A stretch of DNA of 59,560 nt from the NCBI GenBank assembly GCA_039648975.1, contig JBBWZK010000201.1:1-59560 (forward strand). The letters run 5' to 3'. Under the pieces are notes generated by a model. That model saw only the letters and a list, made by a program, of their open reading frames with translations. It was not told the DNA's origin and did not search any database. A program made the position numbers and the translations under genes. Below, piece after piece: positions 14,978-34,998 of the stretch. The stretch's first letter is position 1, and each line of letters opens with the position of its first letter. Origin of the DNA: Blastocatellia bacterium (GTDB taxonomy: Bacteria; Acidobacteriota; Blastocatellia; UBA7656).

Positions 14978-17317
14978 CTATTCTTCCGGCTGGTTGTTCG
15001 ATTCACCATTGCCCCTGAGCAGCGGCAAACGCTTGTATGATTCGATCATCAGCTTCAGGAAATTATCTTCAGAAAGGCGGTCGTCGTTGCGCAACTGCAT
15101 TGCCCCGGCCACGCCTATTGCCAGCAATGCGCCAACGATGATGACGCCAGTCATGACTCCCGCCGTCACCGAAACCCATCTGCTAATCGCCACTGCCGCG
15201 CCGACGATTGCGGCAAGCACAATGACAAACCCAAGGACAAACGACATGAGCGAACTCGCCGGATTATTTTTCGACGGTGGAGCAGGCGGCTGTGATTTGG
15301 GCTGAATCTCTTCAGGCATGCGTGGTAGGTATCTCCCTTCGTTCAAGTCGCGTTCGCGGCGGGCCAAGCGGGCGCGCAACTCTTCGACGCCATCGATCAA
15401 TTCTCTGACCGGGAACTTCTTCCTCAATTCTGGGATAACGATTTCCTGTTCGCCCATCTCTTCGTGGACGAGCAGTTCTTTGTACGAGACCAGCACGTGC
15501 GGAAAGCCGGGCACAGGGATCATCTGCTTGATCTCGATTTTGAAGTTGCTGTTGATTTCGTCAAAGGCTGAGCGGATGACCGCGAGGAAAGCGCGGCGAG
15601 TCTGTTCTTTGCCGATGATCGAGATGAAGATTTTACGGTCTACCAGATCGGCTTTGATCTTGGCGCGATTCTCGCCACTGTGCAGGAAGACGCCGTTCTT
15701 CCAGTAATACTGTTTGGTGATGTACTGGTTCATCCGCACGATGAAACGCGAGATGACAGAATCGGGCAGCGTTTCGACATAATGGTATTGAAACTTCAGC
15801 GCGTCGGCGTCGTCCCACGGAATGTCCAGTTCGTTGTCGTGTAGGTGACGCGGGATCAGGTAATGGCCCTGCCGGTCGGTGAACTCAAAGCACAACTGGA
15901 AATGCTTCATTACGTCAATCAACCGGCGATGCGTGTGTGAAGGGTAACGGCGTTGAGCGTCCGGCAAGCCAGCCAGGATTTCGCCCACGTCTTTTAGATC
16001 GAACTGGCCTTGCGCTTTGACCAGTTGTGCTGAAGTTAGCAATCCATAAACGCCCTGCGTCACCCAGCGCGGATTGAGCACTTGCGTGTCGCCCGGAAAG
16101 CGTATGACCGTGCCCAAAACGTGGAGAATGTCCAGCAAAGACTGGCGCAGGTCTTCGTCCTTCAATTTTTCTTCGCCACAGATTTCCAGATACTTTTCGA
16201 CCGGAATGTAATCCGCATGCATTTCTTTCAATCGTCGTTTGATGGCGAGCCATTCGCGTGGCCAAATGTCGTGTACGTGCTTCATCTGTTCGATCTCGCA
16301 GGCAATCGTCGCTTTCAATGCCGGAATGCCTTCGCCCGTCGGGCACGAAGTTTCAACGAAATCCTTGATGTTGTACTTCTCCTGCAAAGCCTTGCGATCC
16401 AGATTGAGCGGACGCTGGCCTTTCAACTGGTCAATCTGGTTGATGACGACGATGATGGGAGACGCGCCGCCGAAACTTTCGATCAGCTTCAGCCAGTATT
16501 CGATATTGCTGATCTGATCGCCTTTGCGCGCATCCACCACCAGCAGGTAAAGGCTGCGCGTGGTCAGAAAGAACTGGTGCGTTGAATGCTGAATCTCTTG
16601 CCCGCCGAAATCCCAGATGTTCAGTTTGACCGGCTCGCCCTCGCCTTTCACCTCGCTCTGGACGACCTTCATCTCATCGTTGATCTCGACGCCGAGCGTT
16701 GTCTGTTTCTGCGGATTGAAAGTGCCATAAATCAACTGCTCAACCACAGAGCTTTTGCCGACCTTGCCATCTCCGACCACCAGCATCTTCGCCTCATTCA
16801 ACCGCTCTCCGCTTTTCAATCCGGCAATCGCGGCAAAGATCGCTTTTACGTCTTGCGGATTGGCTAGCGTTTCAGGCGGAATAGGCAGTAGATTGTCGCT
16901 GAGGTTGAGTGTGGTCAGGTTAGTCAACTTGGTGATCTCCAGCGGCAGGCTCTTCAGGTGATTACTTCCGAGGCGGAGGCTGGTCAGGTTGGATAGCTTG
17001 GTGATCTCTGGCGGCACGCTCATCAGGTGATTGTAGCTGAGATTGAGGTGGGTCAGATTGATCAGCTTAGTAATCTCCAGCGGCACGCTCGTCAATTGAT
17101 TGAAGCCAAGACGAAGGCTGGTCAGGTTAGTCAGTTTAGTGATCTCCGGCGGCAAGCTCGTCAGTTGATTGTTGCCCAGATCAATGCTGGTCAAGTTGGT
17201 CAGCTTCGTGATCGCCGGCGGCAAACTCCTCAGTTGATTGTCTCTGAGGTCGAGTTTCGTCCAACCTTCCTTTGCCGCCCGTTCAATCAGTTTTAGAATT
17301 TTCTGCTCGTCGGCCAT
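14978..17317 (-). CDS. Roco-family protein: LRR-Roc GTPase-COR with two C-terminal TM helices
   Basis: 23-aa LRRs (LTSLPPEITKLTNL); GDGKVGKS, TLGVEI, WDFGGQE and NQID motifs; COR LNPRWVT; hydrophobic C-terminus. Confidence 0.92.
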   Translation of the reverse strand: MADEQKILKLIERAAKEGWTKLDLRDNQLRSLPPAITKLTNLTSIDLGNNQLTSLPPEITKLTNLTSLRLGFNQLTSVPLEITKLINLTHLNLSYNHLMSVPPEITKLSNLTSLRLGSNHLKSLPLEITKLTNLTTLNLSDNLLPIPPETLANPQDVKAIFAAIAGLKSGERLNEAKMLVVGDGKVGKSSVVEQLIYGTFNPQKQTTLGVEINDEMKVVQSEVKGEGEPVKLNIWDFGGQEIQHSTHQFFLTTRSLYLLVVDARKGDQISNIEYWLKLIESFGGASPIIVVINQIDQLKGQRPLNLDRKALQEKYNIKDFVETSCPTGEGIPALKATIACEIEQMKHVHDIWPREWLAIKRRLKEMHADYIPVEKYLEICGEEKLKDEDLRQSLLDILHVLGTVIRFPGDTQVLNPRWVTQGVYGLLTSAQLVKAQGQFDLKDVGEILAGLPDAQRRYPSHTHRRLIDVMKHFQLCFEFTDRQGHYLIPRHLHDNELDIPWDDADALKFQYHYVETLPDSVISRFIVRMNQYITKQYYWKNGVFLHSGENRAKIKADLVDRKIFISIIGKEQTRRAFLAVIRSAFDEINSNFKIEIKQMIPVPGFPHVLVSYKELLVHEEMGEQEIVIPELRKKFPVRELIDGVEELRARLARRERDLNEGRYLPRMPEEIQPKSQPPAPPSKNNPASSLMSFVLGFVIVLAAIVGAAVAISRWVSVTAGVMTGVIIVGALLAIGVAGAMQLRNDDRLSEDNFLKLMIESYKRLPLLRGNGESNNQPEE

Positions 17318-17388
17318 GGCATCCTCTTGCGCTGAAATGTAGAGGGATATTACTTCGGCAGGATGCGAGATTACAATCTTTATTCAGA

Positions 17389-17497
17389 AGTGACAAGTGG
17401 CAAGGAGGTGAACAGTGACAAGTGACAAGAGCAGAGGAGCAGAGGGGCAGAGGAGACAGATGATGGCGAGTCCACTGCTCCTTCTTGTTACTTGTCA
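17389..17497. repeat. Short tandem arrays (AGTGACA, AGGAGCAG) with a partial inverted copy
   Basis: Intergenic between Roco and permease 1; same AGTGACA unit as at 57919. Confidence 0.65.
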
Positions 17498-20215
17498 CTC
17501 ATAATGCAATGCCGTCATCGGATCGATCTTTGTGGCGCGTCGTGCTGGGACGTAGCAGGCGGCGAGGGCAATCAATAACAGGCCGAGGGCAACTATAACG
17601 AACGTCAACGGGTCGGTAGCTTTCACTTCATAAAGTTGACTGGCCAGCAAGCGCATCAAGGCGAATGCACCCGCCAATCCGATGCCTAATCCGACCATCG
17701 CCGGCTGCATGCCCTGACGAATGACCAGCGCCAGCACGTTCGTTTGCTGTGCGCCCAAGGCCATGCGTATGCCGATTTCGCGCGTCCGCTGGTTGACTCC
17801 GTAAGCTACCACGCCGTAGAGTCCCACGACGGTCAACAGCAGCGCCGTCAGCGCGAACAGACCGAGCAATAATGTGCTGAAACGTGGCCGCGCCACCGCG
17901 TTCGTTACTAGTTGCTCCATCGTGCGGTAGTTGGCTACGGGCAGCGCCGCATCGAGTTGTTTGAACTCTCGCTGGATCGCGCTGCGCAGTGAAGGCAGCG
18001 CCGATACATCGGCGCGCAGCACCATCGCCATCTCGCTCCACGACTCCTGTGCGTGAGGATGATAGATCTGCGGACGCGCCTGCACCTCCAGAGCAAAACC
18101 GCGCACGTCGCGGACGACGCCAACAATCGTCCTCCAATCATTATCATCCAATATCCGTTTGATGCGCTTGCCCAGGATATTGCCTTCGGGGAAAAACTGC
18201 CGGGCCAGCGTCTCGTTGACGATAGCGACGAGCGGCTTACTCGCGCTGTCGGTTGCATCGAAGTCGCGCCCGCTCACCAGACTTACTCCCATGGCCTCGA
18301 AATAACCGGGGGTAATGGCGCGGTCTTCTGCCATTGGCTCTTTGCCGCGCGGCACCGGCGCAGCCTCTTCGATGGAAAAAGGTTCCATACTTTCATTGCC
18401 GCCGAGCGGCAGATTGGAGACCGCCCCGACCGCGCGCACGCCGGGCAGTCCGCTCAATCGCGCTCGCGCCTGCTCGAAGAATTGTGCTCGCGGCTCGCTC
18501 TCACGGTAGCGCTCGCCATGCAACGATACGACGAAGGAAGCGACACCCTGCGGCTTGAAGCCCGGATCAACTGCCAGCAGCCGCCGAAAACTTTGCAACA
18601 TGAGAACTGCGCCGATGAGCAAGATAGCAACCAGCGCAACTTCAACAGTCACCAGCACGCTGTGGCTGCGGATGCCGCGCCCCGCAGAGTTCGTGCGCCC
18701 GGCGTCCTTGAGCGCTTCAGCAAGATTCACCTTTGACGCATGCCAGGCCGGCACCAGCCCGAACAGCACGCCGGTCAGCATAGAGATCAACGCCGTGAAG
18801 AGAAAAACATTTGTGTCTAATGCTACATTTTGCAAGCGCGGCACATTTGGCGGGATGAACTTCAACAACATAGCCAATCCCCAATAGCCGAGTAGCAGCC
18901 CGAAGCCGCCGCCGAGCGCCGCCAGCAACAAACTCTCAGTTAGCAACTGGCGGATGATGCGTGCGCGCCCTGCGCCGATGGCGGCGCGCACAGCCATCTC
19001 CCGCCGCCTTGCCGCCGCGCGCGCCAGCAGAAGACTGGCAATGTTGGCGCAGGCGATCAGCAACAAAAAGCCCACCGCGCCGAGCAGCACTAGCAGCGGC
19101 GTGCGCGTCTGGCCGACGACTTGATTGAAGAGCGGCGTCAGCCACACACGCCAGCCCTCGTGCGTTTGCGGATCAGCGACGGCTTGACGAGCGGCCAGGC
19201 TGTCCATCTCGGTTTGCGCCTGTGCAGGGGTGACGCCCGTTTTCAGGCGTCCAATCAGGATGAGCTGCCTTTGTATATGGTTCTCCCAGAACCTGGCCTC
19301 TCTGGCCATCGGCGTCCAGAGATCAGCCCTTTCCGGCAGGTTGAAGATTTGCGGCATCTCAATCGCTCGCGGAAAGATGAAGCCTTCAGGCATGATGCCG
19401 ATCACCGTGTGCGGCACACGATTGAGGATGATCGTCTTGCCGATAATCTCTGCATCTCCGCCGAAGCGCCGCTGCCACAGCGCATAACTGATGATCGCCA
19501 CGCGGTCTTTGCCGGGCTGCTCTTCTTCGGCTGAAAACTCGCGGCCCAGCAGCGGCTGGACGCCCAGCAGGGGCAGCAGATTAGCCGATATATCAACCCC
19601 GCCAACCCGTTCAGGATCACCGTCGTCGGATAGATCAGCAAGATGGGACTGGAAGGCGGCAATTTGCTCAAAGGATGTTGCCGATGCACGCCACTCCGGC
19701 AGATCAGAGTTGGCCGGCGGCAGTTCGTGAAAGCCGAGTTGCCAGGTCGGATTGTCCGTCCAGAGCATGAAGAGGCGATCTGCATCGTGAAACGCCAACG
19801 GTCTGAGCAACACGCCATTGATGATGCTGAAGATGGCGGTATTCGCGCCGATGCCGAGCGCCAGTGTAATGACCGCTACTAAGGTAAAACCGGGTGTGCG
19901 GCGCAGCATGCGCGAGCCATAGCGTAAATCATGCCAGAAGTCTGCCATCAGATTTTTCCTTTCTGCTCCCATGACCACAGGTTCACGAACCATCGGGCGT
20001 TCAACCCGCCGCAACTCTCGCTGAAACATCTCGTGCTCGCTCAACTCGGCGAGCGCCGCCGCGTAAGCCTCTGCATCGGTTGCGCCGCCGGCCCGCAACT
20101 CGGCATAGCGGTCTTCAAGATGCTGTGACATCTCCTCGATGATCTCGATTTCGCGCGTCGCCTCAAGCCGCAACTCAGCCAGCCGCTTGCTGATCTCATC
20201 TCTCCACACAGGCAT
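17495..20215 (-). CDS. ADOP/MacB-FtsX-type duplicated ABC permease 1 with N-terminal helical prefix domain
   Basis: DLRYG..LRRTPGF, LGIGANTAIFS, LLIACANIA, RTREIGIRMALGA and PARRATKIDP motifs; GGAG RBS before ATG 20215. Confidence 0.93.
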   Translation of the reverse strand: MPVWRDEISKRLAELRLEATREIEIIEEMSQHLEDRYAELRAGGATDAEAYAAALAELSEHEMFQRELRRVERPMVREPVVMGAERKNLMADFWHDLRYGSRMLRRTPGFTLVAVITLALGIGANTAIFSIINGVLLRPLAFHDADRLFMLWTDNPTWQLGFHELPPANSDLPEWRASATSFEQIAAFQSHLADLSDDGDPERVGGVDISANLLPLLGVQPLLGREFSAEEEQPGKDRVAIISYALWQRRFGGDAEIIGKTIILNRVPHTVIGIMPEGFIFPRAIEMPQIFNLPERADLWTPMAREARFWENHIQRQLILIGRLKTGVTPAQAQTEMDSLAARQAVADPQTHEGWRVWLTPLFNQVVGQTRTPLLVLLGAVGFLLLIACANIASLLLARAAARRREMAVRAAIGAGRARIIRQLLTESLLLAALGGGFGLLLGYWGLAMLLKFIPPNVPRLQNVALDTNVFLFTALISMLTGVLFGLVPAWHASKVNLAEALKDAGRTNSAGRGIRSHSVLVTVEVALVAILLIGAVLMLQSFRRLLAVDPGFKPQGVASFVVSLHGERYRESEPRAQFFEQARARLSGLPGVRAVGAVSNLPLGGNESMEPFSIEEAAPVPRGKEPMAEDRAITPGYFEAMGVSLVSGRDFDATDSASKPLVAIVNETLARQFFPEGNILGKRIKRILDDNDWRTIVGVVRDVRGFALEVQARPQIYHPHAQESWSEMAMVLRADVSALPSLRSAIQREFKQLDAALPVANYRTMEQLVTNAVARPRFSTLLLGLFALTALLLTVVGLYGVVAYGVNQRTREIGIRMALGAQQTNVLALVIRQGMQPAMVGLGIGLAGAFALMRLLASQLYEVKATDPLTFVIVALGLLLIALAACYVPARRATKIDPMTALHYE

Positions 20216-20232
20216 AGATGACTCCATTAAAA

Positions 20233-20308
20233 GCGACGCGGCGACAGGGGAAGAGATTCAATCGTAGGTCTGTCGCCGTGTCACCCCTTCGCCGCATCTC
20301 CGCGTCGC
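20233..20308. repeat. Inverted octamer-type arrays (GCGACGCG / CGCGTCGC)
   Basis: Same unit family as at 38816-38900 and 59511-59547. Confidence 0.65.
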
Positions 20309-23028
20309 TATTCATAGCGCAGCGCCGCCATCGGATCGACCTTCGTCGCGCGCCGCGCCGGCAGGTAACAGGCTGATAGCGCGACCACCGCTAGCAGCAA
20401 TGCAAGCAGCGCGAAAGTCGCGGGGTCTGTGACACTGACTTGATAGAGAAAACCCTCCAGCACGCGCGTCAGGGCATACGCACAGGCAAGGCCGATGACC
20501 AGCCCCGTAAGCACTAGCTTCATTCCTTGAGTGACGACCAGCTTCACCACATCAGCGGTCTGCGCGCCCAACGCCATGCGTATGCCGATCTCATGTGTGC
20601 GCTGGCTGACCGAGTAGGAGATCAAGCCGTAAATCCCCGCCGCTGCCAGGATCAAGGCCAGCGTTGAGAAGCCGCCGAGCAGGAGCGTATAGAAACGCGG
20701 GTCGGCGACCTTCTGCGCGATCACCTGCGGCATCCCGGCGACATCGTAGAGCGGCAGGTCTTTGTCTACGGCTTGCAATTCGCTGCGCAGGCCGGCGGCA
20801 AACTGCGGCGGCTCGCCAATCGTGCGCACGACGAACGTCATGTCGCCGAGCATCCAGCGGCGCGAATCGAGTACCTGAAGATACGGTTGATAGATCGCCT
20901 GTGCGAGCGGTGCGCCAACTTCATCCTGTCTGACATCGCCAACCACGCCGATCACTTCGCGCCACGTCTCGCCGCGAAAGCCTATGTTGAGGCGTTTGCC
21001 GAGCGCCTCTTCATCGGGCCAGAGACTGCGCGCCAGCGACTCGCTGATGATCAGCACGCCCGGCGAGTTTTCCGTGTCGCGCTCATTGAAAAGACGGCCT
21101 TTCAGCAGAGGAATGCTCATCGCCTGAAAGTAGTCCGCGCCGATGGCCAGCTTGCTGGCGCTGACGCCGTCGCGCTCGGCGGCTTCGCCTTCGACCAGCA
21201 GGTCGCCTTGAATGCGCGCGCCATTCTTGCCGAGCGGCAGCGCACTGACGATGCCGCTTGCCTGCGCTTCGGGGCGCGTTGCCAGACGAGCGAGCGATTG
21301 CCGATAATAAGCTTTCACCTGCGTCATTGTAGGATATGTTACTTCGGACAGCGTGACGCTGGCGGTCAACACGCGATCAGGATTGAAGCCCAGGCTGGTC
21401 TCGCGCAGCCGCGTAAAGCTCTTCAGCAGCAGCCCCGCGCCGATCAGCAAGACCAGCGCCAGCGAGACTTCGGCAATGACCAGCAAGCCGCGCAAACGAT
21501 GGCGGAACGTGCCGCCTGTCGCTTGCCTGCCGCCGTCTTTGAGCGCCGTATTGAGATCGGGCTTTGATGATTGCAGGGCCGGCGCGAGTCCGAAGATGAT
21601 ACCCGTCAGGATAGAGATCAGCAGCGTGAAGCCAAGTACCCATCGATCAACGGCAATGGCATTCAAGCGCGGAATCTCCTGTGGCGCAACCGCGACCAGT
21701 AGATTGAGACCCCACGATGCCAGCAGCAATCCGAGACCGCCTCCGAGCAGAGCAATCAACAGACTCTCGGTGAGCAACTGCCGCACGATACGCCAGCGGC
21801 TCGCGCCCAGTGCCGTGCGAATGGCCATCTCTTGTTGACGGCCAGCGGCGCGCGCCAGCAGCAGATTGGCCACATTGGCGCATGCGATTAACAATACAAA
21901 ACTCACTGCGCCGAGAAAGACCAGCAGCGCTGTGCGCACGTCGCCGACAATGTAGGTTTGTAAGGGAACAAGGTTGACGCCCAGGCCGCGATTCGTTTGC
22001 GGAAACTCTTGCTCCAGACGGCTGGCGATAGTTGCCAGTTCAGCCTGCGCCTGTGCTTCGGTCACACCCGCTTGCAAGCGAGCGATGACGCGCAGGAAGG
22101 CATTATCTCGCTTGGCGCTCAACGCCGCAGGCAACCACACTTCCGCTTCATTGGGGAAGTTAAAGCCGTCGGGCATCACGCCAATCACTGTGCAGCTATC
22201 GCCTTCAATTCGAACTGCCCGGTCAATGACTGACGGGTCGCCGGCGAAGCGCCGCTGCCAGAGGCTATAACTCAGTATCACCGCCAGTTGGCCGACCGGC
22301 GGACTATCATTGCCGAACAGAGAGCGCCCGGCTTCTTCGGGCAAGAATGTGCGCCCCAGCACAGGCTTGACACCAAGCGTGGCAAACAAGCCTTCAGTAA
22401 CGCGCGCCACACGGACGCGCTCAGGCTCGCTGCCGCCGGTCAGATTAGCGGGCCACGTTCCAATATAAGCGGCCATCTGCGCGCAGGTTCGGCATTGCTC
22501 GCGCCACTCGATAAAGTCAGGGCCATACGCGGCGTTGATTTTTGCGACCTCGCCATCGCGCTCGATAGCGGTGAGGATCATCATCAGGCGGTCGGGCTCA
22601 GTGTAAGGCAAGGGGCGCAGCAACACGGCATTGACGACCGAGAAGATGGCCGTCGTTGCGCCAATCCCTAAAGCCAGCATCAGGACGACCGCCGCGCTGA
22701 AGCCAGGACGGTTGCGCAGCATTCGTTGACCATAACGTAAGTCTTGTAATAAACCTTCCATTACGTTGCTCCTCCTTGCGCCCAACACAATAGGCTCTTG
22801 CGACACCGCGCGCTCAACGCGCCGCAGTTCCTGCCGCAGTATTTCGCTCTCGCTCAATTCGGCGAGCGCCGCGCGGTGCGCCGCTTCATCCGTCGCGCCG
22901 TAAGCCAACAACTCTGCATAGCGATCATCGAGATGCTGCGCGAGTTCCTCGATGATCTCGTCTTCGCGCGTCGGCTCAAGCCGCAAGCCGGCCAGCCGCT
23001 TGGTGATTTCATCTTTCCACTTCGGCAT
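20308..23028 (-). CDS. ADOP/MacB-FtsX-type duplicated ABC permease 2
   Basis: Same motif set; start MPKWKDEITKRL chosen by homology with the paralogs. Confidence 0.93.
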   Translation of the reverse strand: MPKWKDEITKRLAGLRLEPTREDEIIEELAQHLDDRYAELLAYGATDEAAHRAALAELSESEILRQELRRVERAVSQEPIVLGARRSNVMEGLLQDLRYGQRMLRNRPGFSAAVVLMLALGIGATTAIFSVVNAVLLRPLPYTEPDRLMMILTAIERDGEVAKINAAYGPDFIEWREQCRTCAQMAAYIGTWPANLTGGSEPERVRVARVTEGLFATLGVKPVLGRTFLPEEAGRSLFGNDSPPVGQLAVILSYSLWQRRFAGDPSVIDRAVRIEGDSCTVIGVMPDGFNFPNEAEVWLPAALSAKRDNAFLRVIARLQAGVTEAQAQAELATIASRLEQEFPQTNRGLGVNLVPLQTYIVGDVRTALLVFLGAVSFVLLIACANVANLLLARAAGRQQEMAIRTALGASRWRIVRQLLTESLLIALLGGGLGLLLASWGLNLLVAVAPQEIPRLNAIAVDRWVLGFTLLISILTGIIFGLAPALQSSKPDLNTALKDGGRQATGGTFRHRLRGLLVIAEVSLALVLLIGAGLLLKSFTRLRETSLGFNPDRVLTASVTLSEVTYPTMTQVKAYYRQSLARLATRPEAQASGIVSALPLGKNGARIQGDLLVEGEAAERDGVSASKLAIGADYFQAMSIPLLKGRLFNERDTENSPGVLIISESLARSLWPDEEALGKRLNIGFRGETWREVIGVVGDVRQDEVGAPLAQAIYQPYLQVLDSRRWMLGDMTFVVRTIGEPPQFAAGLRSELQAVDKDLPLYDVAGMPQVIAQKVADPRFYTLLLGGFSTLALILAAAGIYGLISYSVSQRTHEIGIRMALGAQTADVVKLVVTQGMKLVLTGLVIGLACAYALTRVLEGFLYQVSVTDPATFALLALLLAVVALSACYLPARRATKVDPMAALRYE

Positions 23029-23090
23029 TGGCGATCCTTGAAACATCAGCCCATCGGTGAGCCTGATTCTCAGAGCGAATTTTTGAAATG

Positions 23091-23236
23091 AGTGCCATAG
23101 GCACGCAATGTTTATAGAACGATCAGTAATTAGTTTGACCAAGCCCCGTAGGGGCGAAATGTTCACATTACGCTCCTAACGGAGCTTGGAATCTTATTAG
23201 CAATGGTGACTATAAACATTGCGCTCCTACGGAGCT
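23091..23236. repeat. REPIN/MITE-like palindromic element, copy 2
   Basis: Same layout as 9821-9966; spacers of 23 and 22 nt. Confidence 0.9.
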
Positions 23237-23290
23237 GACTGCTCAGATATACTCTCAAGACTCGCCAGACTCTCAAGACTCGATAGACTG

Positions 23291-25957
23291 TTATTCATAG
23301 CGCAGCGCCACCATCGGATCGACGTGCGTCGCGCGCCGCGCCGGGATATGACACGCCAGCAAGGTGATGACGGCGAGAATCAGTGGCACGCTGGCAAACG
23401 TCATCAGGTCGGTCGTGCTGATCTCGAACAACATCTTCGAGATGACGCGGGTCAAGAGCAGCGCCCCGGCCAGACCTATCGCTACCCCTATGAGCATCAG
23501 CCTCACCCCCTGCCGCAGAACCAGCTTCAAGACATCCGCCGGCTGTGCGCCGAGCGCCAGGCGTATACCGATCTCGTGCGTGCGTTGCGCGACAGAATGC
23601 GACATGACGCCGTAGATGCCGACGGCGGCCAGCAGCAGAGCGACAGCCGCAAACACCGCCAGCAGGAACATCAACCCGCGACGGTCGGCTATCGAACTCG
23701 TCACCGCCTGGTCGAGCGTCGTCGTCCAGGCAATGGGCAGGTCTTTATCGATGGCTTGAATGGCGCTCCTCGCGGCATTCGTCAGACTCTGTGGATCACC
23801 GTCGGCGCGCACAAAGAAAGTCAGCGCCGGGTGCGCGCCTTGAGCATGCGGCACGTGTATCTCCGGCTGCACCTCTTGATCCAGGCTGCCTTGCCTGACA
23901 TCGCCCGCGACCCCGACGATCTCCAGCCAGGGCGGCTGTGGATCACGCGAACTGTAAAATCGAATACGTTTGCCGATCACCTCTTCGCCCGCAAAGAAAC
24001 GCCGCGCCAGCGCCTGATTGACCATCGCGACGCCGGGGGCCTGTAGGTCATCTTGTAAGGTGAACTCCCGTCCGGCAATGAGCGGGATAGCGAGCGTGCG
24101 AAAGTACGCAGGACTGTCCGAGATGTAGTTTGCAAAATTTTCCTGGCCGGGTTCGGGCAACGGCTGTCCCTGAATCGCAAATCGCCGCGACGAGGTGCCC
24201 ATCGTCCAGTAATTGAAAGCCGCCGAAGCTACCGACTGCGCCTGCGGCATCGCTTCCAGTCGTTCAATCGTCTGTTGGATAAACGTAGCGCGTTGACTTC
24301 TTTCGGCATACCGCGCCTGCGGCAGCGTCACGTTGATGCACAACACGCCTTCAGGTCGAAAGCCCGGATCGACCGATTGAAGTTTGAGAAAGCTTCTGAG
24401 CATCAGCCCTGTGCCAAGCAACAGGATGAGCGACAGGGCGATTTCGGCGACGACCAGAGCGCTGCGCAGACGTTGCCGCGCGAGGCTGGCGCTCGCGCGA
24501 CCGCTGCCTTCTTTGAGCGCATCGCGCAAGTCTCTATCCGAGAGCCGGAAGGCTGAAAGCGTGCCGAAGATCGTTCCCGTCAACAAGACGATCAGCGATA
24601 GAAATCCCAGCACGCGGCTATCAATATGGACTTCGGCGAGGCGCGGAATGCGCATAGGACTCAGACTGATGAGCAGATCGAGACTCGATGTCGCCAGTAA
24701 CAAACCGAGCGCGCCGCCGAGCAGAGCCAGCAACAGGCTCTCGACGAGGAATTGCCTGAACAAACGAAAAGGGCTTGCGCCCATCGCCGTGCGCACCGCC
24801 ACTTCTTTCTGTCGGCCTGCGGCGCGCACCAGCAGCAGGTTGGCGACGTTGGCGCAGGCAATCAGCAGCACGAAAGCAATCGCGCCGAGCAACACCAGCA
24901 GCGGCGTCCGCGTATCGCCGGTCAATTGTTCGCTGAGCGGCACCACATTCACTGAAATCGGGTTGGGGTACTGCGGCTGCAAGACGGTTTGCAGATTGGC
25001 CGCGACCTGCGCTATCGGCACGCCGGGCTTGAGGCGCGCAATGACGTTGAGAAAGTTATTGCCGCGCGGCGTGCCGGGATTGTTAGGATCAAACGCGGCG
25101 TTGGCCCAGAGCTGCGTTCCTGTCGGCACAAGCGGAAACTCGAAGCCCTGCGGCATGACGCCGATGACCGTATAGGCTTGCCCGTCGAAGCTGAGTGGTT
25201 TGCCGATAATATCAGCATCGCCCTTGAAACGCTGCTGCCAGAATCGATGATTCAACACGACCGCCAGCGCCGCCCCGGGCTTATCTTCATCCGGCAGAAA
25301 CCCGCGCCCCAACAAAGGCTTGACGCCAAGCGCGGCCAGCGTGCCGGCGGAGACAGTTGAACCCTGTATGGCTTCCGGCTCGCCTTCGCTCACAAGATTG
25401 AAGACGCTGTAGATCGTGAACGTCCCCATCTGCTCGCAGGTCTGATTCTGGTCGCGCCAGTCGACGAAGTCCGGCACAGAGGCCGAGAAGTTGGTGTTCT
25501 TATAAACTCTGACCAGTTGCTCAGGCTCTGTATAAGGCAGCGGCTTGAACAAGACTGCATGAACCAGTGTGAAGATCGCGGTGATCGGCCCGATACCGAG
25601 CGCCAGGGTCAGCACGGCAATCAAGGTAAAGCCGGGCTGCCTGCGCATACTGCGAAATCCGTAACGTAAGTCTTGCCACAAATCTGCAATCATATTGATC
25701 CTCCCGGCTCCTAACACGACAGGCTCACGCATCACCTGGCGCTCGGTACGGCGCAACTCATGCGATAACACAGGGCTGTCGCTCAATTCGGCGAGGGCCA
25801 GACGATAGGCTTCATTCGCTGTTGCGCCGCCCTGTCGCAATTCGTCGTAGCGGTCATCGAGATGCTGCGACAGTTCTTCGATGATCTCGACTTCGCGGGT
25901 CGGCTCAAGCATCAGCCCGGCCAATCGTTGTTTGATCTCATCTCTCCACTTCGGCAT
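23291..25957 (-). CDS. ADOP/MacB-FtsX-type duplicated ABC permease 3
   Basis: Same motif set; GGAGG RBS before MPKWRDEIKQRL. Confidence 0.93.
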   Translation of the reverse strand: MPKWRDEIKQRLAGLMLEPTREVEIIEELSQHLDDRYDELRQGGATANEAYRLALAELSDSPVLSHELRRTERQVMREPVVLGAGRINMIADLWQDLRYGFRSMRRQPGFTLIAVLTLALGIGPITAIFTLVHAVLFKPLPYTEPEQLVRVYKNTNFSASVPDFVDWRDQNQTCEQMGTFTIYSVFNLVSEGEPEAIQGSTVSAGTLAALGVKPLLGRGFLPDEDKPGAALAVVLNHRFWQQRFKGDADIIGKPLSFDGQAYTVIGVMPQGFEFPLVPTGTQLWANAAFDPNNPGTPRGNNFLNVIARLKPGVPIAQVAANLQTVLQPQYPNPISVNVVPLSEQLTGDTRTPLLVLLGAIAFVLLIACANVANLLLVRAAGRQKEVAVRTAMGASPFRLFRQFLVESLLLALLGGALGLLLATSSLDLLISLSPMRIPRLAEVHIDSRVLGFLSLIVLLTGTIFGTLSAFRLSDRDLRDALKEGSGRASASLARQRLRSALVVAEIALSLILLLGTGLMLRSFLKLQSVDPGFRPEGVLCINVTLPQARYAERSQRATFIQQTIERLEAMPQAQSVASAAFNYWTMGTSSRRFAIQGQPLPEPGQENFANYISDSPAYFRTLAIPLIAGREFTLQDDLQAPGVAMVNQALARRFFAGEEVIGKRIRFYSSRDPQPPWLEIVGVAGDVRQGSLDQEVQPEIHVPHAQGAHPALTFFVRADGDPQSLTNAARSAIQAIDKDLPIAWTTTLDQAVTSSIADRRGLMFLLAVFAAVALLLAAVGIYGVMSHSVAQRTHEIGIRLALGAQPADVLKLVLRQGVRLMLIGVAIGLAGALLLTRVISKMLFEISTTDLMTFASVPLILAVITLLACHIPARRATHVDPMVALRYE

Positions 25958-26020
25958 CGCAAACCTCCGGTTTGCGGTTTCTAAATTAAACCGCATGAGA
26001 AAGGGAGTGCGGCAGCATTT

Positions 26021-26090
26021 GGAGTGCGGCGACTTGTCGCCGCTTTGTTCGATAACGATGATGCAAAGCGGTGACCAGTCACCGCACACT
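26021..26090. repeat. REP-like inverted doublet (GGAGTGCGGCGAC family)
   Basis: GGAGTGCGGCGACTTGTCGCCGCTTTG...CAAAGCGGTGACCAGTCACCGCAC; related unit at 42950-42983. Confidence 0.7.
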
Positions 26091-26147
26091 ATATAAGAGA
26101 GTCTGCCATTCCCTTGCCGTCTGATTTAGGAACCAGAAACCAGAAAC

Positions 26148-28910
26148 CTATTCATCTCTCAACGCCACCATTGGATCAAGTCGCGAAGCCCGCCGCGCAG
26201 GCACATAGCTCGCCACTGCGGCGATCACAGCCAGCAGAGTCACAGCCATTACGAAGGTCGCCGGATCATGCGCCTGTAACCCGAAGAGCAGCGCACTGGC
26301 TGTCTGGGCGACCACCAGCGCCAGCACGGTGCCAACCGTCAGGCCAACTATCAGCAGGGTCGCGGCTTCACGCATAACGATCATCAGGACGTTGCGCCGG
26401 TTTGCGCCCAAGGCCATGCGTATGCCGATTTCGTGTGTCCGCCGCGCCACCATGTACGAGATCACCCCGTACAGGCCGATGCTGGCCAGCAAGGCGGCGA
26501 GAAAACCGAAGAAGCTGGACAACGTCGCCATCAGGCGCTCGCGTAGGAGTGAGTCGCGAATCTGCGTTTTGAAGACCTGAAATCGAAATCGTATGTCCGG
26601 GTTGATTTCCGTGAGCGTGGACTTCACAGACGCGATGAGGCCGGGCAGCGGCGTATTTGAGCGAATCATGATCTGACCCGATGGACTGGGGCGCGGATTT
26701 TGGGATACAGGGAGAAAGACAATGGGCGAGAAGGTTTCCTGAAGGCTCAGGTATTTCGTGTCCTTCACCATGCCGACGATTTCATAAACCGTTTCCGGGT
26801 CATAAGGCGTCGCCTCGACGCGGAATCTTTTTCCTATCGGGTTGGCTCCATTGGCCAGTTGACGGGCGAAGGTCTCGTTGACCAGGGCGACCGTCGGCGA
26901 CATCGCCGTATCACGGGCATCGAACTCTCGACCTGCGAGCAGCGGGGTATCCAGAGCCCTGAAGTAACCTGGCCCAACCCGACTGATCAGCGTGTTGGTT
27001 CGTTGTTCTGAATCGGCACCGTCCATCCACACATTGTTGCTCGTCCCGTTGCCGCTGATGGGAACGATATTCGTCTCGGCAGCCGCATAGACTCCGGGGA
27101 TTGCCTGAAGCCGTTCGACTAACTCCTGCTTAAACGCTGTCCGGCGTTCGACCGGAAGATTGAGGCGGCTCAGTCCTACATTAGTGATCAAGATGCCGTC
27201 CTGCGGAAATCCTGTATCCAGAGTCAGCAAATTCCGCAAGCTGCCGGAAAACAGCAGCGCGCCGACCAGCAGCACGAGTGAGAGAGCCACTTGCAAGACG
27301 ACGAGCGCGCGCCGCAGGCTGAAGCGTTCACGGCTTGTGGTTAGCCCACGGCTACTCGCCTTCATCACAACGCCAGGGTCTGTGCGCGTCGCACGCAGGG
27401 CCGGGACTAATCCGAACAGCACACAAGTCGACGTGGCCAGTCCCAGCGTAAACGCCAGCACGCGCCAGTCTGCGTTCAAATTCAGGAATAGCGGGTTGCC
27501 CTCTGTGCTCAACAGCGAGACGAGAAACTGGCTTAACACGCGCGCCAATAATAAGCCTAAGCCAGCGCCTATGGTGGCCAGCAAAATGCTTTCAGCCATC
27601 AACTGGCGGATGAGGCGGCTGCGCGACGCGCCCAGAGCCAGCCGCACCGCCATCTCCCTTTCGCGCACGCTCGCACGAGCGAGCAGGAGATTCGCCAGAT
27701 TGGCACAAGCAATCAACAGCACCAGCCCGGCAAGCGCCAACAGCACCCAGAGGGGGGCAGTATAGTTCGCGCGCAATTGCGATTCGCCCTGGCGGGCGGG
27801 AATCGCCGCCAGTTTGAAGCCCAGGTAGTTTGGCACATTGACGGCAGGATAATTCGCCGGCAGCGTCGCTTCAAAGATGCCGGGCGAAATAGAATCCAGA
27901 TGTTTTGTAGCTTCCGCTATAGATTGGCCTGGTTTCAAGCGACCCATGACGCTGAGCCACCAGGAGGTGCCGGCGTCGAGCCGGCTGTTCTTGCCACGGA
28001 CGATAGCTTCTGCGCATATGGGCACGGCAACATCGAAAGACTGGCCGATTTCAAGGCCGAAAAAACTGGCAGGCGTGACGCCGATGATCTCAAGCGACTG
28101 ACCATCGAGCGCCAGTGTGCGACCGATCACCGCCGGGTCGCCGCCAAATTCGCGCTGCCAGAACGCATGACTGATGACCACGCCCGCCGCGCCGCAGCCG
28201 CGCTGATCGTCAGCCAGAGTAAAGACGCGGCCCAGAACAGGCTGTACGCCAAGTACCGTAAAGAAATTTCCGCTGACCCAGAGGCCGCGAACGAGACGGG
28301 CTTCACCACTCGGCGAGATGTTGAAGCCGTCGCTGCTCCAGGCGAAGAGGCCGGAAAACGCTTGTTGCTGATCACGTATGCGCTCCCAGATCGGATTCGT
28401 CACCGCCGGATAGGGGCTGTTGAAACTGCCGCGCGCGCCCGTCATGTCGGTGATTTGAATCTCGGCAATTTCTTGCGGGTTGGCCACCGGCAGCGAGCGT
28501 ATGACGACCGTGTTGAGCAATTGAAAGATCGCCGTATTCGCGCCGATTCCCAGCGTCAGCGATAGCACAGCAACCAGCGTAAAGCCGGGGCTCTTACGTA
28601 ACATGCGCATGCCATAGCGCAAATCCTGTCCAAAGTCTGTCAGCATATTTTTCCTCCCTGCTCCTAAAACAACCGGGTTGCCCTTTACCGAGCGCTCGAC
28701 CCTCTTGAGTTCCTGCGCCAGTAGATGACCGCCGCGTAACTCTGCCAGCACCAACCGCTCTGCCTCGTCGGCAGTCGTACCGCCAGCCAACAACTCGTCG
28801 TGGCGGTCATCGAGATGCTGTGAGAGTTCCTCAATGATGTCGGCTTCGCGGGTCGGCTCAAGCTTAAGGCCGGCCAGCCGCTCGCGGATCTCTTTTTGCC
28901 AATCAGGCAT
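26148..28910 (-). CDS. ADOP/MacB-FtsX-type duplicated ABC permease 4
   Basis: Same motif set; start MPDWQKEIRERL overlaps the PadR stop (ATGCCTGA). Confidence 0.93.
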   Translation of the reverse strand: MPDWQKEIRERLAGLKLEPTREADIIEELSQHLDDRHDELLAGGTTADEAERLVLAELRGGHLLAQELKRVERSVKGNPVVLGAGRKNMLTDFGQDLRYGMRMLRKSPGFTLVAVLSLTLGIGANTAIFQLLNTVVIRSLPVANPQEIAEIQITDMTGARGSFNSPYPAVTNPIWERIRDQQQAFSGLFAWSSDGFNISPSGEARLVRGLWVSGNFFTVLGVQPVLGRVFTLADDQRGCGAAGVVISHAFWQREFGGDPAVIGRTLALDGQSLEIIGVTPASFFGLEIGQSFDVAVPICAEAIVRGKNSRLDAGTSWWLSVMGRLKPGQSIAEATKHLDSISPGIFEATLPANYPAVNVPNYLGFKLAAIPARQGESQLRANYTAPLWVLLALAGLVLLIACANLANLLLARASVREREMAVRLALGASRSRLIRQLMAESILLATIGAGLGLLLARVLSQFLVSLLSTEGNPLFLNLNADWRVLAFTLGLATSTCVLFGLVPALRATRTDPGVVMKASSRGLTTSRERFSLRRALVVLQVALSLVLLVGALLFSGSLRNLLTLDTGFPQDGILITNVGLSRLNLPVERRTAFKQELVERLQAIPGVYAAAETNIVPISGNGTSNNVWMDGADSEQRTNTLISRVGPGYFRALDTPLLAGREFDARDTAMSPTVALVNETFARQLANGANPIGKRFRVEATPYDPETVYEIVGMVKDTKYLSLQETFSPIVFLPVSQNPRPSPSGQIMIRSNTPLPGLIASVKSTLTEINPDIRFRFQVFKTQIRDSLLRERLMATLSSFFGFLAALLASIGLYGVISYMVARRTHEIGIRMALGANRRNVLMIVMREAATLLIVGLTVGTVLALVVAQTASALLFGLQAHDPATFVMAVTLLAVIAAVASYVPARRASRLDPMVALRDE

Positions 28911-29259: not shown

Positions 29260-29290
29260 GACATATTACTTAGAAACAGGAATATGTCAA
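29260..29290 (-). promoter_or_regulatory. sigma70 promoter of padR overlapped by an inverted repeat (putative operator)
   Basis: Minus strand TTGACA-16 nt-TAATAT; perfect inverted repeat GACATATT-N13-AATATGTC at 29260-29288. Confidence 0.65.
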
Positions 29291-29492: not shown

Positions 29493-29957
29493 TTATCGCC
29501 TTGCTTCAGGCTCTTTCAAGGTAAGGGTGGTGTGTTCAGTAACCGAGGGCATGTCGATGAGATGATCGGTCGCCGGCGCGGCGGCGAGTTGCGCGGCCTC
29601 GCTTGCCGCCAGCGCTTCATCGCCGGCTTCTGGCGGCGAACTCAGAGCGCGTTTGGCGCGACCGAGGCGAAAGATGCCTGTGACGATGAGCGGCACCGCG
29701 ATGATCAGCAGCAGCAACAGATTGAAGATGACGCCGAGCTTCGACGGGCTGAAAATGAGATTGAGGAGAAGATTGAGCTTGACGATGCCGACGACGATCA
29801 GGCCGATGGAGACCAGCAGCGAGCCGCTCTTGATATGCGTGCCGGCATCCTCCACTTTGCCTTCCATGGCGAGCCGATGGCTTGCCAGGCCGTGGCCACA
29901 GCCGCGACAATAGCGTGGCTCGTTGAGATTATTCGCGCCGCATTTCGGGCAAAACAT
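29493..29957 (-). CDS. Zinc-ribbon, two-TM membrane protein
   Basis: MFCPKCG...YCRGCG, two hydrophobic segments, C-terminal SVTEHTT. Confidence 0.85.
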   Translation of the reverse strand: MFCPKCGANNLNEPRYCRGCGHGLASHRLAMEGKVEDAGTHIKSGSLLVSIGLIVVGIVKLNLLLNLIFSPSKLGVIFNLLLLLIIAVPLIVTGIFRLGRAKRALSSPPEAGDEALAASEAAQLAAAPATDHLIDMPSVTEHTTLTLKEPEARR

Positions 29958-30036
29958 TTTACCTGCCTCCCCGCCCTCGTTTATGATTTTCACTCAGCAT
30001 AAGTGGGTTACGCCGCCACGACAAGGAGAGTTCACG

Positions 30037-30807
30037 ATGTCGACAATCGCCGCCGCGCCGCTGGTCTTGAGCGAACGCCAGGGGGCTATCCTCCGGCTGA
30101 CGCTCAACCGTCCTGATAAGAGCAACTCGCTGCACCCCGATCTGGTTCGGCAACTCGCTGACGCGCTCGCGGCTGCCGCAATCGACGACTCGGTAAATGT
30201 AGTCGTCATTACTGGCGCGGGCCGCAGCTTCTGTGCGGGCCTTGATCTCGGATTGCTCGTCAATTGGACGATGGAAGAGAAGCTTGAGTATCTCGGCGCC
30301 GTCACCAAGGTCTTTCGCGCTATCTGGGAATTGCCGCAGCCGGTGATTGCGGCAGTCAACGGGGCTTGCATTGCCGGCGGCTTTGATCTTGCGGCCTTCT
30401 GCGACATACGGCTCGCCGCCGACGAAGCCATCTTTGGGCAGGCGGAGATTAACATCGGCCTGACGCAGATCATTCATCCACTCTACAAAACCATCGGCCT
30501 GGCGCGGGCGAAAGAACTTGCTCTGACCGGCCAGAACATCAACGCGGCGGAAGCCTACCGCATCGGCCTGGTGAATCACGTTTATCCACAGGCCGAGCTG
30601 CTGCCGCAGGCTCTACAGCTTGCCGCGCTGCTTGCCGCCAAGTCGCGCATGGCGCTCGTTGAAACCAAGCGGCTGACGCGCGAGTTGATCGATCTGGACA
30701 CCGCCAGCGCGCTTGCCGAGATCGGGCGCACCTTCCGCCGCTGTCTTGAAAGTGACGAACATCACCAGCGAGTCGCCGAGGTTTACGCGAGCATTCACAG
30801 GAAGTAA
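30037..30807 (+). CDS. Enoyl-CoA hydratase/isomerase (crotonase) family protein
   Basis: LTLNRPDK, FCAGLDL, PVIAAVNG and AEINIG motifs; AAGGAG RBS. Confidence 0.93.
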   Translation: MSTIAAAPLVLSERQGAILRLTLNRPDKSNSLHPDLVRQLADALAAAAIDDSVNVVVITGAGRSFCAGLDLGLLVNWTMEEKLEYLGAVTKVFRAIWELPQPVIAAVNGACIAGGFDLAAFCDIRLAADEAIFGQAEINIGLTQIIHPLYKTIGLARAKELALTGQNINAAEAYRIGLVNHVYPQAELLPQALQLAALLAAKSRMALVETKRLTRELIDLDTASALAEIGRTFRRCLESDEHHQRVAEVYASIHRK

Positions 30808-30808
30808 A

Positions 30809-30890
30809 AGTCAGGAGTCAGAATGGAAAGGGAAGTCGGCTGTCGCCTCCAATTTTATTCTGACTTCAGTCTTCTGACTCCTGGCTTCCT
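30809..30890. repeat. Inverted heptamer arrays (AGTCAGG / TCTGACT)
   Basis: Arrays at 30809-30824 and 30857-30890. Confidence 0.7.
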
Positions 30891-30898
30891 CTTAAGCT

Positions 30899-32608
30899 AT
30901 GAAACCTGAAGACCTGAAACTCATCGAGCTTTTGCAGATCAACGAAGAGGCGGGGACGATCTATTTCAATAATCGTCGCATGCTGATCTTCGACGCCGAC
31001 GCCATGGGATTCTTGCGCCGCGAACTCATCGAGCGGCTGGGGGTGGCGGGCGCGCGCAAGCTTCTCGTGCGCTTCGGCTATGCGCGCGGCTACCGCGATG
31101 CGATGACCTCGAAAGAGTTGTTCAACTGGGCGACGCTCGAAGAGTGGTGGCGGGCCGGCGTCCGCTTGCACGCGCTTGAAGGGATCACCGATTCGCGTCC
31201 TCTGCTTCACGAATTCGATCAGGAGAAGGGCCTCTTTCACGCCGAAAGCATCTGGACAACCTCCTATGAAGCCGAGCAGCACTTGAAGCACATAGGCCAG
31301 AGCGACACGCCCGTCTGCTGGTCGCTCACGGGTTATGCGGGCGGTTATTCGACTGCCGTGTTCGGCAGCGACATTTTTTATTTTGAGACCGAATGCGTCG
31401 GGCGTGGCGATGCGCACTGCCACGTGGTCGGCAGGTCGCTCGGCGGCGAGACGAACGATGCCAGCAACGCCGCTCGCGAGTATTATCAAATCGAGGACTT
31501 CGAGCAACAACTGCCGCAGATCGTCAGCGAGCGTGTAGAGATGCAGCAGTTGATGGAAGAACTCGACCGCCGCGCCAACGATCTTGAAGAAGAGCGTGCG
31601 CGGGTTGCGGCGCTCGAATCACAGGTCTTCTATCTGCAAGAAGCCATCAATCAAAATTACAACATCGAAGAACTGGTCGGCGTCAGCCCGACATTCAAGC
31701 AGGTGATGCGGGATGTCGAGCGCGTTGCGCCGACGGACACGACCGTGCTGGTTACCGGCGAGACCGGCACCGGCAAAGAGTTAGTCGCCCGCGCCATACA
31801 CGTGCGCAGCCTGCGCCGGTCGCGCCCGCTGATTACAGTGAACTGCGCGGCGCTGCCTTCGGGGCTGGTCGAAAGCGAACTCTTCGGCCACGAGCGCGGC
31901 GCGTTCACCGGCGCTGTGCAGCGCAAGCTCGGACGCTTCGAGCTGGCCAATCACGCGACGATCTTTCTCGATGAAGTCGGCGAACTGCTGCTCGACACGC
32001 AGGCGAAATTCCTGCGCGTGCTTCAGCAGGGCGAGTTCGAGCGCGTCGGCGGCACGCAAACCATCAAGGTTGACGTGCGTGTGATTGCCGCTACTAATCA
32101 ACCGCTGGCCCGGCTGGTCGAAGAAGGCAAGGTCCGTGCGGATTTGTATTACCGCCTCAACGTCTTTCCGATCAACATACCGCCCTTGCGCGAGCGCGGT
32201 GACGACCTGGTGCTGCTGGTGAATTATTTCGCGCAGAAGTTCCGCGCCCGCTTCAAGAAGAAGATCACCTCGATCAGCCAGGAATCGCTCGAACGCCTGC
32301 AACAGTACTCGTGGCCCGGCAACGTGCGCGAGTTGGAGCACATCATTGAGCGCGCCGTGTTGCTTGCCGAAGGCGAAGTGCTCCAGATCGATCTGCCGCT
32401 CAGCGATGAACGGCGCGCGCCGTCCAAGCCGGCATCGCCAACCGCAGGACAACGGCTGGTGACGCTCGACGAGATGGAGCGCGATTACATCGAGCAGGTC
32501 TTGAAGCACGCCGGCGGCATGATCGCAGGCCGTGGCGGCGCGGCAGAGATACTCGGACTGCCCGCTTCGACCCTGCGCAGCCGCATGAAGAAACTCGGCA
32601 TCAAGTGA
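30899..32608 (+). CDS. XylR/DmpR-type sigma54-dependent activator (XylR_N-V4R-AAA+-HTH)
   Basis: V4R Cys/Glu pattern (PVCW...ETEC...HC); [22 protein letters not shown]; Fis-type HTH. Confidence 0.95.
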
Positions 32609-34074: not shown

Positions 34075-34113
34075 TTGAAGTTGCGCCAGCCACAATGTAA
34101 CTTCGATCATCCG

Positions 34114-34995: not shown

Positions 34996-34998
34996 CGG

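Follow-up and report, generated by a model that had tools for sequence, protein, structure and literature searches.

Do the four permease genes that follow a padR regulator gene in Blastocatellia bacterium each encode one protein, or two? The genes, here called A to D, lie in a 59,560-nucleotide (nt) stretch of contig JBBWZK010000201.1 (assembly GCA_039648975.1), which was analysed whole and is referred to below as the window. They form a minus-strand array at 17495-29290 in which the order along the operon is promoter, padR, D, C, B, A, and each encodes an ADOP permease preceded by an N-terminal prefix. Few gene families have expanded as much in soil Acidobacteriota as the ADOP permeases, for which we know of no described substrates or regulation. 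At the boundary between prefix and permease, each of the four open reading frames (ORFs) carries a Shine-Dalgarno (SD) type sequence followed by an in-frame ATG. Comparative analysis of this boundary leads us to regard it as likely, though well short of certain, that the SD and ATG form a working in-frame internal start held by selection, so that a long and a short permease would be made from each gene.

An earlier reading of these genes made without database searches (the sequence-only reading) had placed an SD and an in-frame ATG at the junction in all four, and each motif and coordinate agreed with our minus-strand reading. The junctions are gaa AGG aaa aat ctg ATG in gene A, gca AGG AGG agc aac gta ATG in gene B, gcc GGG AGG atc aat ATG in gene C and gca GGG AGG aaa aat ATG in gene D (ATG positions in Table 1). 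With the conserved MP[VKD]W starts (A, 20215; B, 23028; C, 25957; D, 28910) taken as codon 1, the internal ATG is codon 90 in A and B and codon 89 in C and D, and the NCBIfam ADOP model starts 3-5 residues past it, at residue 93 or 94. Ranking all in-frame ATGs within each gene by pairing energy with the anti-SD showed that the pattern is strong in B, C and D and marginal in A. Other strong SD and ATG combinations inside the genes (e.g. C codon 821, D codon 820) were rejected as G-rich chance matches at which the residues are non-homologous. A programmed -1 frameshift at the A AAA AAC-type heptamer that follows the SD in some genes was also rejected, as many genes do not share the K-N codons and the SD adjoins them rather than lying about 10 nt upstream. 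Two further observations of the sequence-only reading were reproduced. Arginine is encoded predominantly by CGN codons away from the junction, where AGA and AGG make up 25 of 284 Arg codons (8.8%) in the four genes, whereas all 5 that lie no more than six codons from an internal ATG are AGG. The upstream starts also have their own ribosome-binding site (RBS) or are coupled to padR: GGAG precedes A, AAGGA precedes B and GGAGG precedes C, and the start of D overlaps the padR stop as ATGCCTGA. Pairing energies at these upstream starts were -5.9, -5.0, -10.7 and -3.0 kcal/mol for A, B, C and D, respectively.

We gathered homologs of the window-type prefix by alignment of prefix residues 1-80 alone, so the junction played no part in selection. 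The sources were 62 loci from named genome records together with matches in 46 of the 53 genomes of the window's family, mostly in tandem arrays. This yielded 198 prefix ORFs, 196 of which had an ADOP N-terminus behind the prefix, and 163 distinct junctions; three were dropped with an ADOP match beyond model position 5, leaving 160. A strong SD, defined as anti-SD pairing of -6 kcal/mol or lower, was present at 125 of the 160 junctions, and 129 had a start codon in the four columns around the site (109 ATG, 9 GTG and 11 TTG). By comparison, a strong SD was found at 8.9% of 2510 other in-frame ATGs, at 10.5% of 23909 sampled codon positions and at 36% of 116 annotated prefix starts. The sequence-only reading had staked its prediction on the SD and ATG being conserved in wider homologs, and had proposed a check of AGG/SD enrichment over synonymous expectation. 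The conservation is borne out by these counts, and the enrichment by the codon analysis that follows.

For the synonymous null, the protein sequence was held fixed and codons were redrawn from each gene's own usage. The mean SD energy over the 160 junctions was -8.01 kcal/mol, versus -3.50 kcal/mol in the null (standard deviation of means 0.15), and 97 of the 160 genes fell in the lowest 5% of their own null distribution. Among Arg codons up to six codons upstream, AGA or AGG (AGR) accounted for 212 of 259 (82%) against 37.7 expected, with 100 of 102 at codon -3 and 77 of 96 at codon -4. At five further columns of these genes in which Arg is conserved, AGR was used in 3/142, 7/159, 3/157, 3/119 and 5/136 cases (2-4%). 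These control columns use all four CGN synonyms, indicating that the AGR bias is local and not inherited. The resulting consensus at -12 to -6 is AGGAG(G/A)A. What we took to define an internal start, an SD at working distance from an in-frame start and conserved beyond synonymous expectation, is what these junctions display. Judged by codon choice, the RBS and start codon at the boundary are kept at the nucleotide level beyond the needs of the amino-acid sequence.

The spacing between SD and start was examined at a fixed site, which leaves no freedom in the choice of start. GGAG occurs in 123 of the 160 junctions, and an in-frame ATG follows it after 6-8 nt in 79 of the 123, versus 0.7% of the 1526 GGAGs elsewhere in the same ORFs. 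Any start codon was found at this site in 91 of 123 (79 ATG, 8 GTG, 4 TTG), versus 7% (0.7+3.7+2.6) at other GGAGs. Where the residue at the site is valine, the codon is GTG in 8 of 11 cases (background 0.37, p=0.017), and where it is leucine, TTG is used in 4 of 8 (p=0.07). A 60-nt stretch at the site folds at -11.7 kcal/mol versus -16.9 kcal/mol in controls, and is less structured in 97% of 116 genes. The canonical anti-SD tail was present in 5 of 5 same-family genomes searched. These results bear on the alternative that survives best, in which the SD-like stretch slows elongating ribosomes so that the prefix can fold or the first transmembrane helix be targeted, without any initiation. Such a role would suit the position of the motif in a disordered linker about 20 residues ahead of the first membrane helix, as well as the nine junctions that have an SD but no start codon. 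However, a pause needs no start codon, and yet one stands at the fixed distance in the majority of GGAG junctions and at every junction of the second prefix family described below, and the Val and Leu residues at the site prefer GTG and TTG. SD-driven ribosome pausing is itself disputed. We consider an elongation pause unlikely to explain the junction.

The own genome of the window holds, on another contig, a second PadR-linked prefix family (L141:1298-4030 and L141:4033-6876, in region L141 916..6876), and both of these genes sit behind a divergent PadR-like gene. Their 86-residue prefix gave no match to Pfam and NCBIfam models, and their junction reads TTG GAG GAC GAT ATG. This family was found in 42 of the 53 family genomes, in long tandem arrays with up to 12 matches per genome (loci L145-L194). 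A start codon was present at all 108 distinct junctions (102 ATG, 5 GTG and 1 TTG), and the SD reached -6 kcal/mol or lower in 99% of them. The Glu codon at -3 was GAG in 106 of 106 cases (background 0.50), and G was the last base of codon -4 in 106 of 108, even though L, W, M and V are all encoded there. Mean SD energy was -9.54 kcal/mol, versus -6.14 kcal/mol in the synonymous null (standard deviation 0.27). On this sequence comparison, the second, unrelated prefix family is an independent replicate of the feature. In contrast, canonical perm_prefix_1 (NF038403) fusions to ADOP permeases, which are likewise PadR-linked (own-genome member L142:917-3586, 59.9 bits) and occur in 49 of 53 genomes, had a start with an SD of -6 kcal/mol or lower in just 3 of 31 junctions. 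The feature is thus not a general property of prefix-ADOP fusions. As a separate observation on the second family, 95 of 106 Arg codons at -5 have A as their third base (66 AGA, 29 CGA), for which SD pairing offers no explanation.

The prefix-less paralogs indicate where such a junction could have come from. The window genome has about 64 ADOP paralogs, and in 38 that are prefix-less the start Met lies six residues before the D of DLRY, the same column as the internal Met of A to D. The predicted short product would thus be an ordinary ADOP permease, and an origin of the internal ATG as a fusion relic fits. All 38 prefix-less starts have an SD of -6 kcal/mol or lower, with a mean of -9.6 kcal/mol. 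Fusion of a prefix ORF to a permease gene, by way of the latter's 5' leader, is the probable origin of the element.

Such events appear to have been repeated. Mapping the window-type label on the tree of permease bodies required 37 changes over 74 rows, of which well-supported branches force no fewer than 24, and a subset tree fitted the prefix labels no better than shuffled labels. The approximately unbiased (AU) test rejected a single clade of window-type permease bodies (log-likelihood difference 1467, p=0.00015; 19 rows versus 36). Such scatter suggests that modules have been exchanged, gained or lost more than once in this very large paralog family. The SD type goes with the prefix family and not with the permease body, suggesting that prefix, SD and ATG travel together as a module, with recombination in the conserved QDLRYG region as the probable route.

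A fusion origin raises the possibility that the SD and ATG are leftovers with no present function, the fossil RBS that the sequence-only reading had offered as its alternative. The shared start-Met column agrees with this, and the second family's junction (TTG GAG GAC GAG ATG) is similar to the leaders found in prefix-less paralogs, whose translation reads LLEELM. As the prefix-bearing bodies fail to form a clade, fusions or swaps may be frequent and some junctions could be young. Age can be judged from the prefixes themselves, in which pairwise differences at codon positions 1/2/3 are 0.29/0.21/0.53 (window type) and 0.26/0.15/0.45 (second type). With third positions differing this much, recent common ancestry does not account for the conserved AGR and GAG codons, and the near-invariance of AGR and of GAG at codon -3 is not what a relic would show. 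Nor would a relic explain why the full set of CGN synonyms appears at other conserved Arg columns, or why SD type follows the prefix family rather than the permease body; and the perm_prefix_1 fusions exemplify a junction without upkeep. The fusion part of the fossil alternative therefore fits, while a functionless relic runs counter to the codon controls, to the replicate family and to the decayed perm_prefix_1 junctions, and appears very improbable.

The same controls apply to the proposal that the residues G-x-x-R-R-x-N-M are conserved for protein function and the SD is a side effect. The residues are conserved, with R in 82 of 114 and N in 62 of 114 rows. However, this would not account for AGR being used so differently at the junction and at the five other conserved Arg columns, nor for the last base of codon -4 in the second family staying G while its residue varies. 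A model of the gene D prefix, built with 114 aligned sequences, has four helices at residues 4-12, 19-42, 47-59 and 62-76, with a mean predicted local distance difference test (pLDDT) score of 78 and scores of 83-93 over residues 1-60. The linker that contains the SD and ATG (residues 77-90) is modelled as disordered, with pLDDT below 50. A protein-level cause is therefore highly improbable, and the motif in this linker is most simply seen as a by-product of the RNA signal.

The prefix itself is, on its substitution pattern, a conserved coding region: neither prefix type has frame-0 stops (138 and 105 genes), versus 1.3-2.6 per block in other frames. That the start is mis-set, with the short protein alone being made and the upstream frame an untranslated leader, is barely credible, since although the internal SD is on average stronger than the annotated prefix start (-8.0 versus -5.6 kcal/mol), the prefix diverges in a coding pattern free of frame-0 stops, is modelled with confidence as four helices, has a match to NF038403 and one below threshold to Pfam HAAS, and is predicted to bind the neighbouring PadR.

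The family assignment of the prefix is graded by its scores. Against perm_prefix_1 (NF038403, cutoff 30 bits), B, C and D scored 30.2, 32.7 and 30.2 bits and A scored 25.8, compared with 59.9 for the canonical own-genome member. Against Pfam HAAS (PF22564), the gene D prefix scored 18.4 bits, under the gathering cutoff of 27; this model matched 106 of 114 prefixes at E<=1, below cutoff, with a best E of 6.6e-5. A GxP motif (G.P between residues 31 and 80) was found in 2 of 114 prefixes, and HAAS has a core of three consecutive helices versus the four in our model. The HAAS trait of an adjoining standalone gene for a PadR-like winged helix-turn-helix (wHTH) protein is present, as padR overlaps the start of gene D. 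Given the sub-cutoff PF22564 score and the GxP motif in only 2 of 114 prefixes, we call the prefix HAAS-like and not a HAAS member.

The fetched loci contained 70 distinct PadR ORFs. We modelled a PadR dimer together with prefix residues 1-80, and the predicted complex scored 0.63 (runs 0.65, 0.63 and 0.63) with a best control of 0.02. In calibration, 58 of 80 solved complexes attained this mark, as did 2 of 110 mismatched pairs. The runs share at least 89% of contacts, and the partner pLDDT is at least 79. With the prefix model as query, Foldseek returned no PDB structure at E<=0.001, and a profile search of PDB sequences with the prefix gave weak helical matches only, so the complex score is unlikely to reflect memory of a known complex. 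The modelled contacts on PadR (residues 32-34, 37, 51-61, 64 and 79-82) include the alignment-invariant Y56, P57, R79, R81 and R82 and fall within the PadR domain; on the prefix side they involve an acidic, nearly invariant helix around E24-R36. The prefix is thus predicted to bind PadR, and by the usual PadR layout the contacted residues would correspond to the DNA-binding (winged-helix) face. A role in PadR sequestration would rest on this predicted complex together with a hypothesis in the available text of PMC11237479.

If the boundary does act as an internal start, one mRNA would give two proteins per permease gene: a long form with a cytoplasmic four-helix HAAS-like prefix of about 88 residues, and a short form beginning at the residue where prefix-less ADOP paralogs begin. 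The first long form, from gene D, would be translationally coupled to padR through the start/stop overlap. The -10 hexamer of padR ends 6 nt before its ATG, a layout also seen in 31 of 39 homologous padR upstream regions (loci L001-L136), so the padR mRNA looks leaderless and is predicted to be so. Together with the overlap of the first long form, this suggests that the long forms would be made in small, PadR-tied amounts. The internal site has a mean energy of -8.0 kcal/mol, versus -9.6 at true ADOP starts and -5.6 at annotated prefix starts. This stronger internal site could supply most of the transporter, adding no PadR-binding heads. The ratio of long to short form would then set how much PadR is held at the membrane, with the transporter acting as sensor as in the HAAS-PadR model. 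As a broader and distinctly tentative proposal, which we hold to be possible but doubtful, prefix, RBS and ATG may form a mobile module that has moved many times and that pairs a scarce sensor form, gripping PadR at its DNA-binding face and tied to leaderless padR through the start/stop overlap, with an abundant transporter, the ratio of starts rather than transcription setting the gain of a one-component, transporter-coupled circuit and two prefix families having converged on the arrangement.

Several observations weigh against a working internal start. No start codon was found at 31 of the 160 junctions and no strong SD at 35, and in the window itself the SD of gene A is weak. One small control column (R/K at +16) used AGR in 11 of 28 cases. 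GC content at the site is 0.51 versus 0.60, so the weak folding is partly a by-product of A/G-rich codons and is not fully independent evidence. The anti-SD had to be assumed for the window's own genome, the assembly of which gave no 16S match. The sampled sequences are kin and come mostly from metagenome-assembled genomes. When kinship was corrected for (15 independent pairs on a tree of the permease part), SD and start changed in the same direction in about 3.6 pairs and in opposite directions in 0.3, with 11 unchanged (p~0.25); the raw two-by-two table (116/9/13/22) is confounded by kinship and was not used as evidence. No stop codon was found between prefix and SD-ATG among the prefix-only ORFs examined. 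Finally, we infer the regulatory role of the two forms.

The taxonomic range of the feature is also a restriction. SD and start were found together in 75/83 same-family rows, 10/10 same-genus rows and 3/4 window genes, in 11/15 and 11/13 rows labelled Blastocatellia and in 6/18 rows without a class label. The counts were 0/9 for Acidobacteriaceae, 0/3 for Vicinamibacteria and 0/5 for other rows, so that in total the pair was found in 0 of 17 rows outside Blastocatellia-type genomes (Terriglobia, Vicinamibacteria, Verrucomicrobia and Gemmatimonadia), which likewise counts against the reading. Among the homologs sampled, the feature is, by these sequence counts, limited to Blastocatellia-type genomes. 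The two-isoform prediction of the sequence-only reading hence emerges with qualifications: conservation, AGR enrichment, the second-family replicate and the near-absence from the perm_prefix_1 control speak for it, while it is limited by the weakness of the gene A SD, the absence from the homologs sampled outside Blastocatellia-type genomes and the lack of significant co-variation between SD and start once kinship is corrected for.

The prefix-only ORFs are contig ends, deletion remnants or, at L134, one frameshift in the prefix. In L134 the SD-ATG and the permease behind the frameshift are intact. L075 and L096 carry an in-frame remnant in which prefix residues 1-39 are joined to the last ~65 permease residues, and in L137 a short tandem repeat comes after a prefix stump. 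Assembly error or real decay is possible in each.

The features of the array are listed in Table 1. All four permease products are ADOP by TIGR03434 (ADOP duplicated permease; curated cutoff 622.3 bits), with scores of 902.4-996.5 bits and coverage from model position 1-2 to 803, and each has two PF12704 (MacB_PCD) and two PF02687 (FtsX) stretches. PadR-family membership of the padR product is established by PF03551 and by TIGR03433, the acidobacterial PadR model. No ABC ATPase gene was found adjoining the array among the neighbouring ORFs scanned. The operon promoter was the sole minus-strand promoter-like site found in a scan of 17300-29500. An internal promoter for a short transcript was not found on the minus strand within the genes (4 sites versus 3.9 expected, a comparison with little power). 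The inverted repeat overlapping the operon promoter is a weak candidate for a PadR operator, as a repeat with at least 8 matched pairs occurs in just 7 of 39 homologous padR loci.

Table 1. Predicted features of the padR-permease array, in order along the operon
Feature	Coordinates	Strand	Details
Sigma-70-like promoter of padR-permease operon	29263..29290	-	TTGACA, 16 nt, TAATAT
Inverted repeat, candidate PadR operator (weak)	29260..29288	.	11-nt arms, 91% complementary; overlaps promoter
padR, PadR-family regulator, 117 aa	28903..29256	-	TIGR03433 120.9 bits (cutoff 101.8); PF03551 87.5 bits
Gene D long ORF, 920 aa	26148..28910	-	TIGR03434 902.4 bits; NF038403 30.2 bits; HAAS-like prefix + ADOP permease
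Gene D internal SD GGGAGG (Gly-Arg codons GGG AGG)	28653..28658	-	Strongest among 19 in-frame ATGs
Gene D predicted short isoform	26148..28646	-	ATG 28646..28644, codon 89, through to stop
Gene C long ORF, 888 aa	23291..25957	-	TIGR03434 957.4 bits; NF038403 32.7 bits
Gene C internal SD GGGAGG	25700..25705	-	Rank 2 of 18 in-frame ATGs
Gene C predicted short isoform	23291..25693	-	ATG 25693..25691, codon 89
Gene B long ORF, 906 aa	20308..23028	-	TIGR03434 974.5 bits; NF038403 30.2 bits
Gene B internal SD AAGGAGG (codons AGG AGG)	22771..22777	-	Rank 1 of 16 in-frame ATGs
Gene B predicted short isoform	20308..22761	-	ATG 22761..22759, codon 90
Gene A long ORF, 906 aa	17495..20215	-	TIGR03434 996.5 bits; NF038403 25.8 bits, under cutoff 30
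Gene A internal SD-like AAAGGA, weak	19957..19962	-	Weaker than -6 kcal/mol; outside top 4 of 26 in-frame ATGs
Gene A predicted short isoform	17495..19948	-	ATG 19948..19946, codon 90

Repeats were seen in two spacers of the array. The spacer upstream of gene B (23166..23295) contains two near-identical elements of about 22 nt (agctccgt..aggagcg.aatgt) and two copies of gagtcttgagagt, and the C-D spacer contains a ggtttctggtttctggtt repeat. Just downstream of the array, 14978..17317 on the minus strand encodes a 779-amino-acid Roco-type protein with leucine-rich repeats, a Roc GTPase, COR-A and COR-B domains and a hydrophobic C-terminal stretch; assignment of this product to type III effector families was rejected, as the repeat matches were far under cutoff. 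In the plus-strand region 29923..32608, genes for an enoyl-CoA hydratase and for a sigma-54 activator whose sensor domains are XylR_N and V4R diverge from padR. The region 34001..38000 has low GC content (0.445 and 0.425, versus about 0.58 elsewhere), and may be acquired DNA; besides ORFs that match no family, it carries one gene that is NMT1/THI5-like and one for a methyltransferase.

A conserved internal start in these genes, if true, would mean that annotations miss one protein per gene across hundreds of genes. It would also offer a handle on the dosing of the proposed HAAS-PadR pair against the transporter it reads. The junctions further provide a clean computational case of an in-gene RBS under purifying selection, with a codon control, a convergent replicate and a negative-control family. 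In-frame internal starts that give N-terminal proteoforms are already known in bacteria and archaea, ClpB, IF2, CheA and the MthK RCK domain being examples. Alternative starts have been mapped by retapamulin ribosome profiling according to the available text of bioRxiv 10.1101/520783, and Cas11b is described in that of PMC11899642 as produced from within a larger cas gene. In agreement with the sequence-only reading, which knew of no such arrangement, the literature searched, supplements aside, yielded no description for ADOP, HAAS or PadR-linked permeases, among which an internal start appears to be new.

The closest regulatory parallel is the dyad that HAAS forms with a PadR-like wHTH, for which fusions of HAAS to FtsX-like domains accompanied by MacB/PCD domains are listed and which, in the available text of PMC11237479, is proposed to replace a two-component system, HAAS passing a membrane signal to PadR. 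As in that dyad, a standalone PadR gene in the window adjoins the gene of a membrane protein whose cytoplasmic N-terminal domain is alpha-helical. Unlike HAAS proper, the window prefix scores below the Pfam cutoff and is without the GxP motif, and neither an internal start nor two isoforms are mentioned in that available text. The term 'duplicated orphan permease' occurs in the available text of PMC3914696 and PMC11573002. Prefix-less ADOP paralogs (TIGR03434) share their first residue and domain order with the predicted short isoform, whereas the window genes add an in-frame upstream prefix. The perm_prefix_1 fusions (L142:917-3586) resemble the window genes in being PadR-linked ADOP permeases with a helical N-terminal prefix, but differ in having no conserved SD and start at the junction and in matches that are mostly single on contigs and not in long runs. 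With known internal-start proteoforms, the window genes share a single ORF, an internal SD with an in-frame start, a short product that would be without the N-terminal domain, and an internal site that is probably a fusion relic still in use. They differ from these in that the case for an internal start is one of comparative sequence evidence, in that the protein is a membrane transporter with a predicted repressor-binding N-terminal domain, and in that the feature is found again in hundreds of paralogs and spans two unrelated prefix families.

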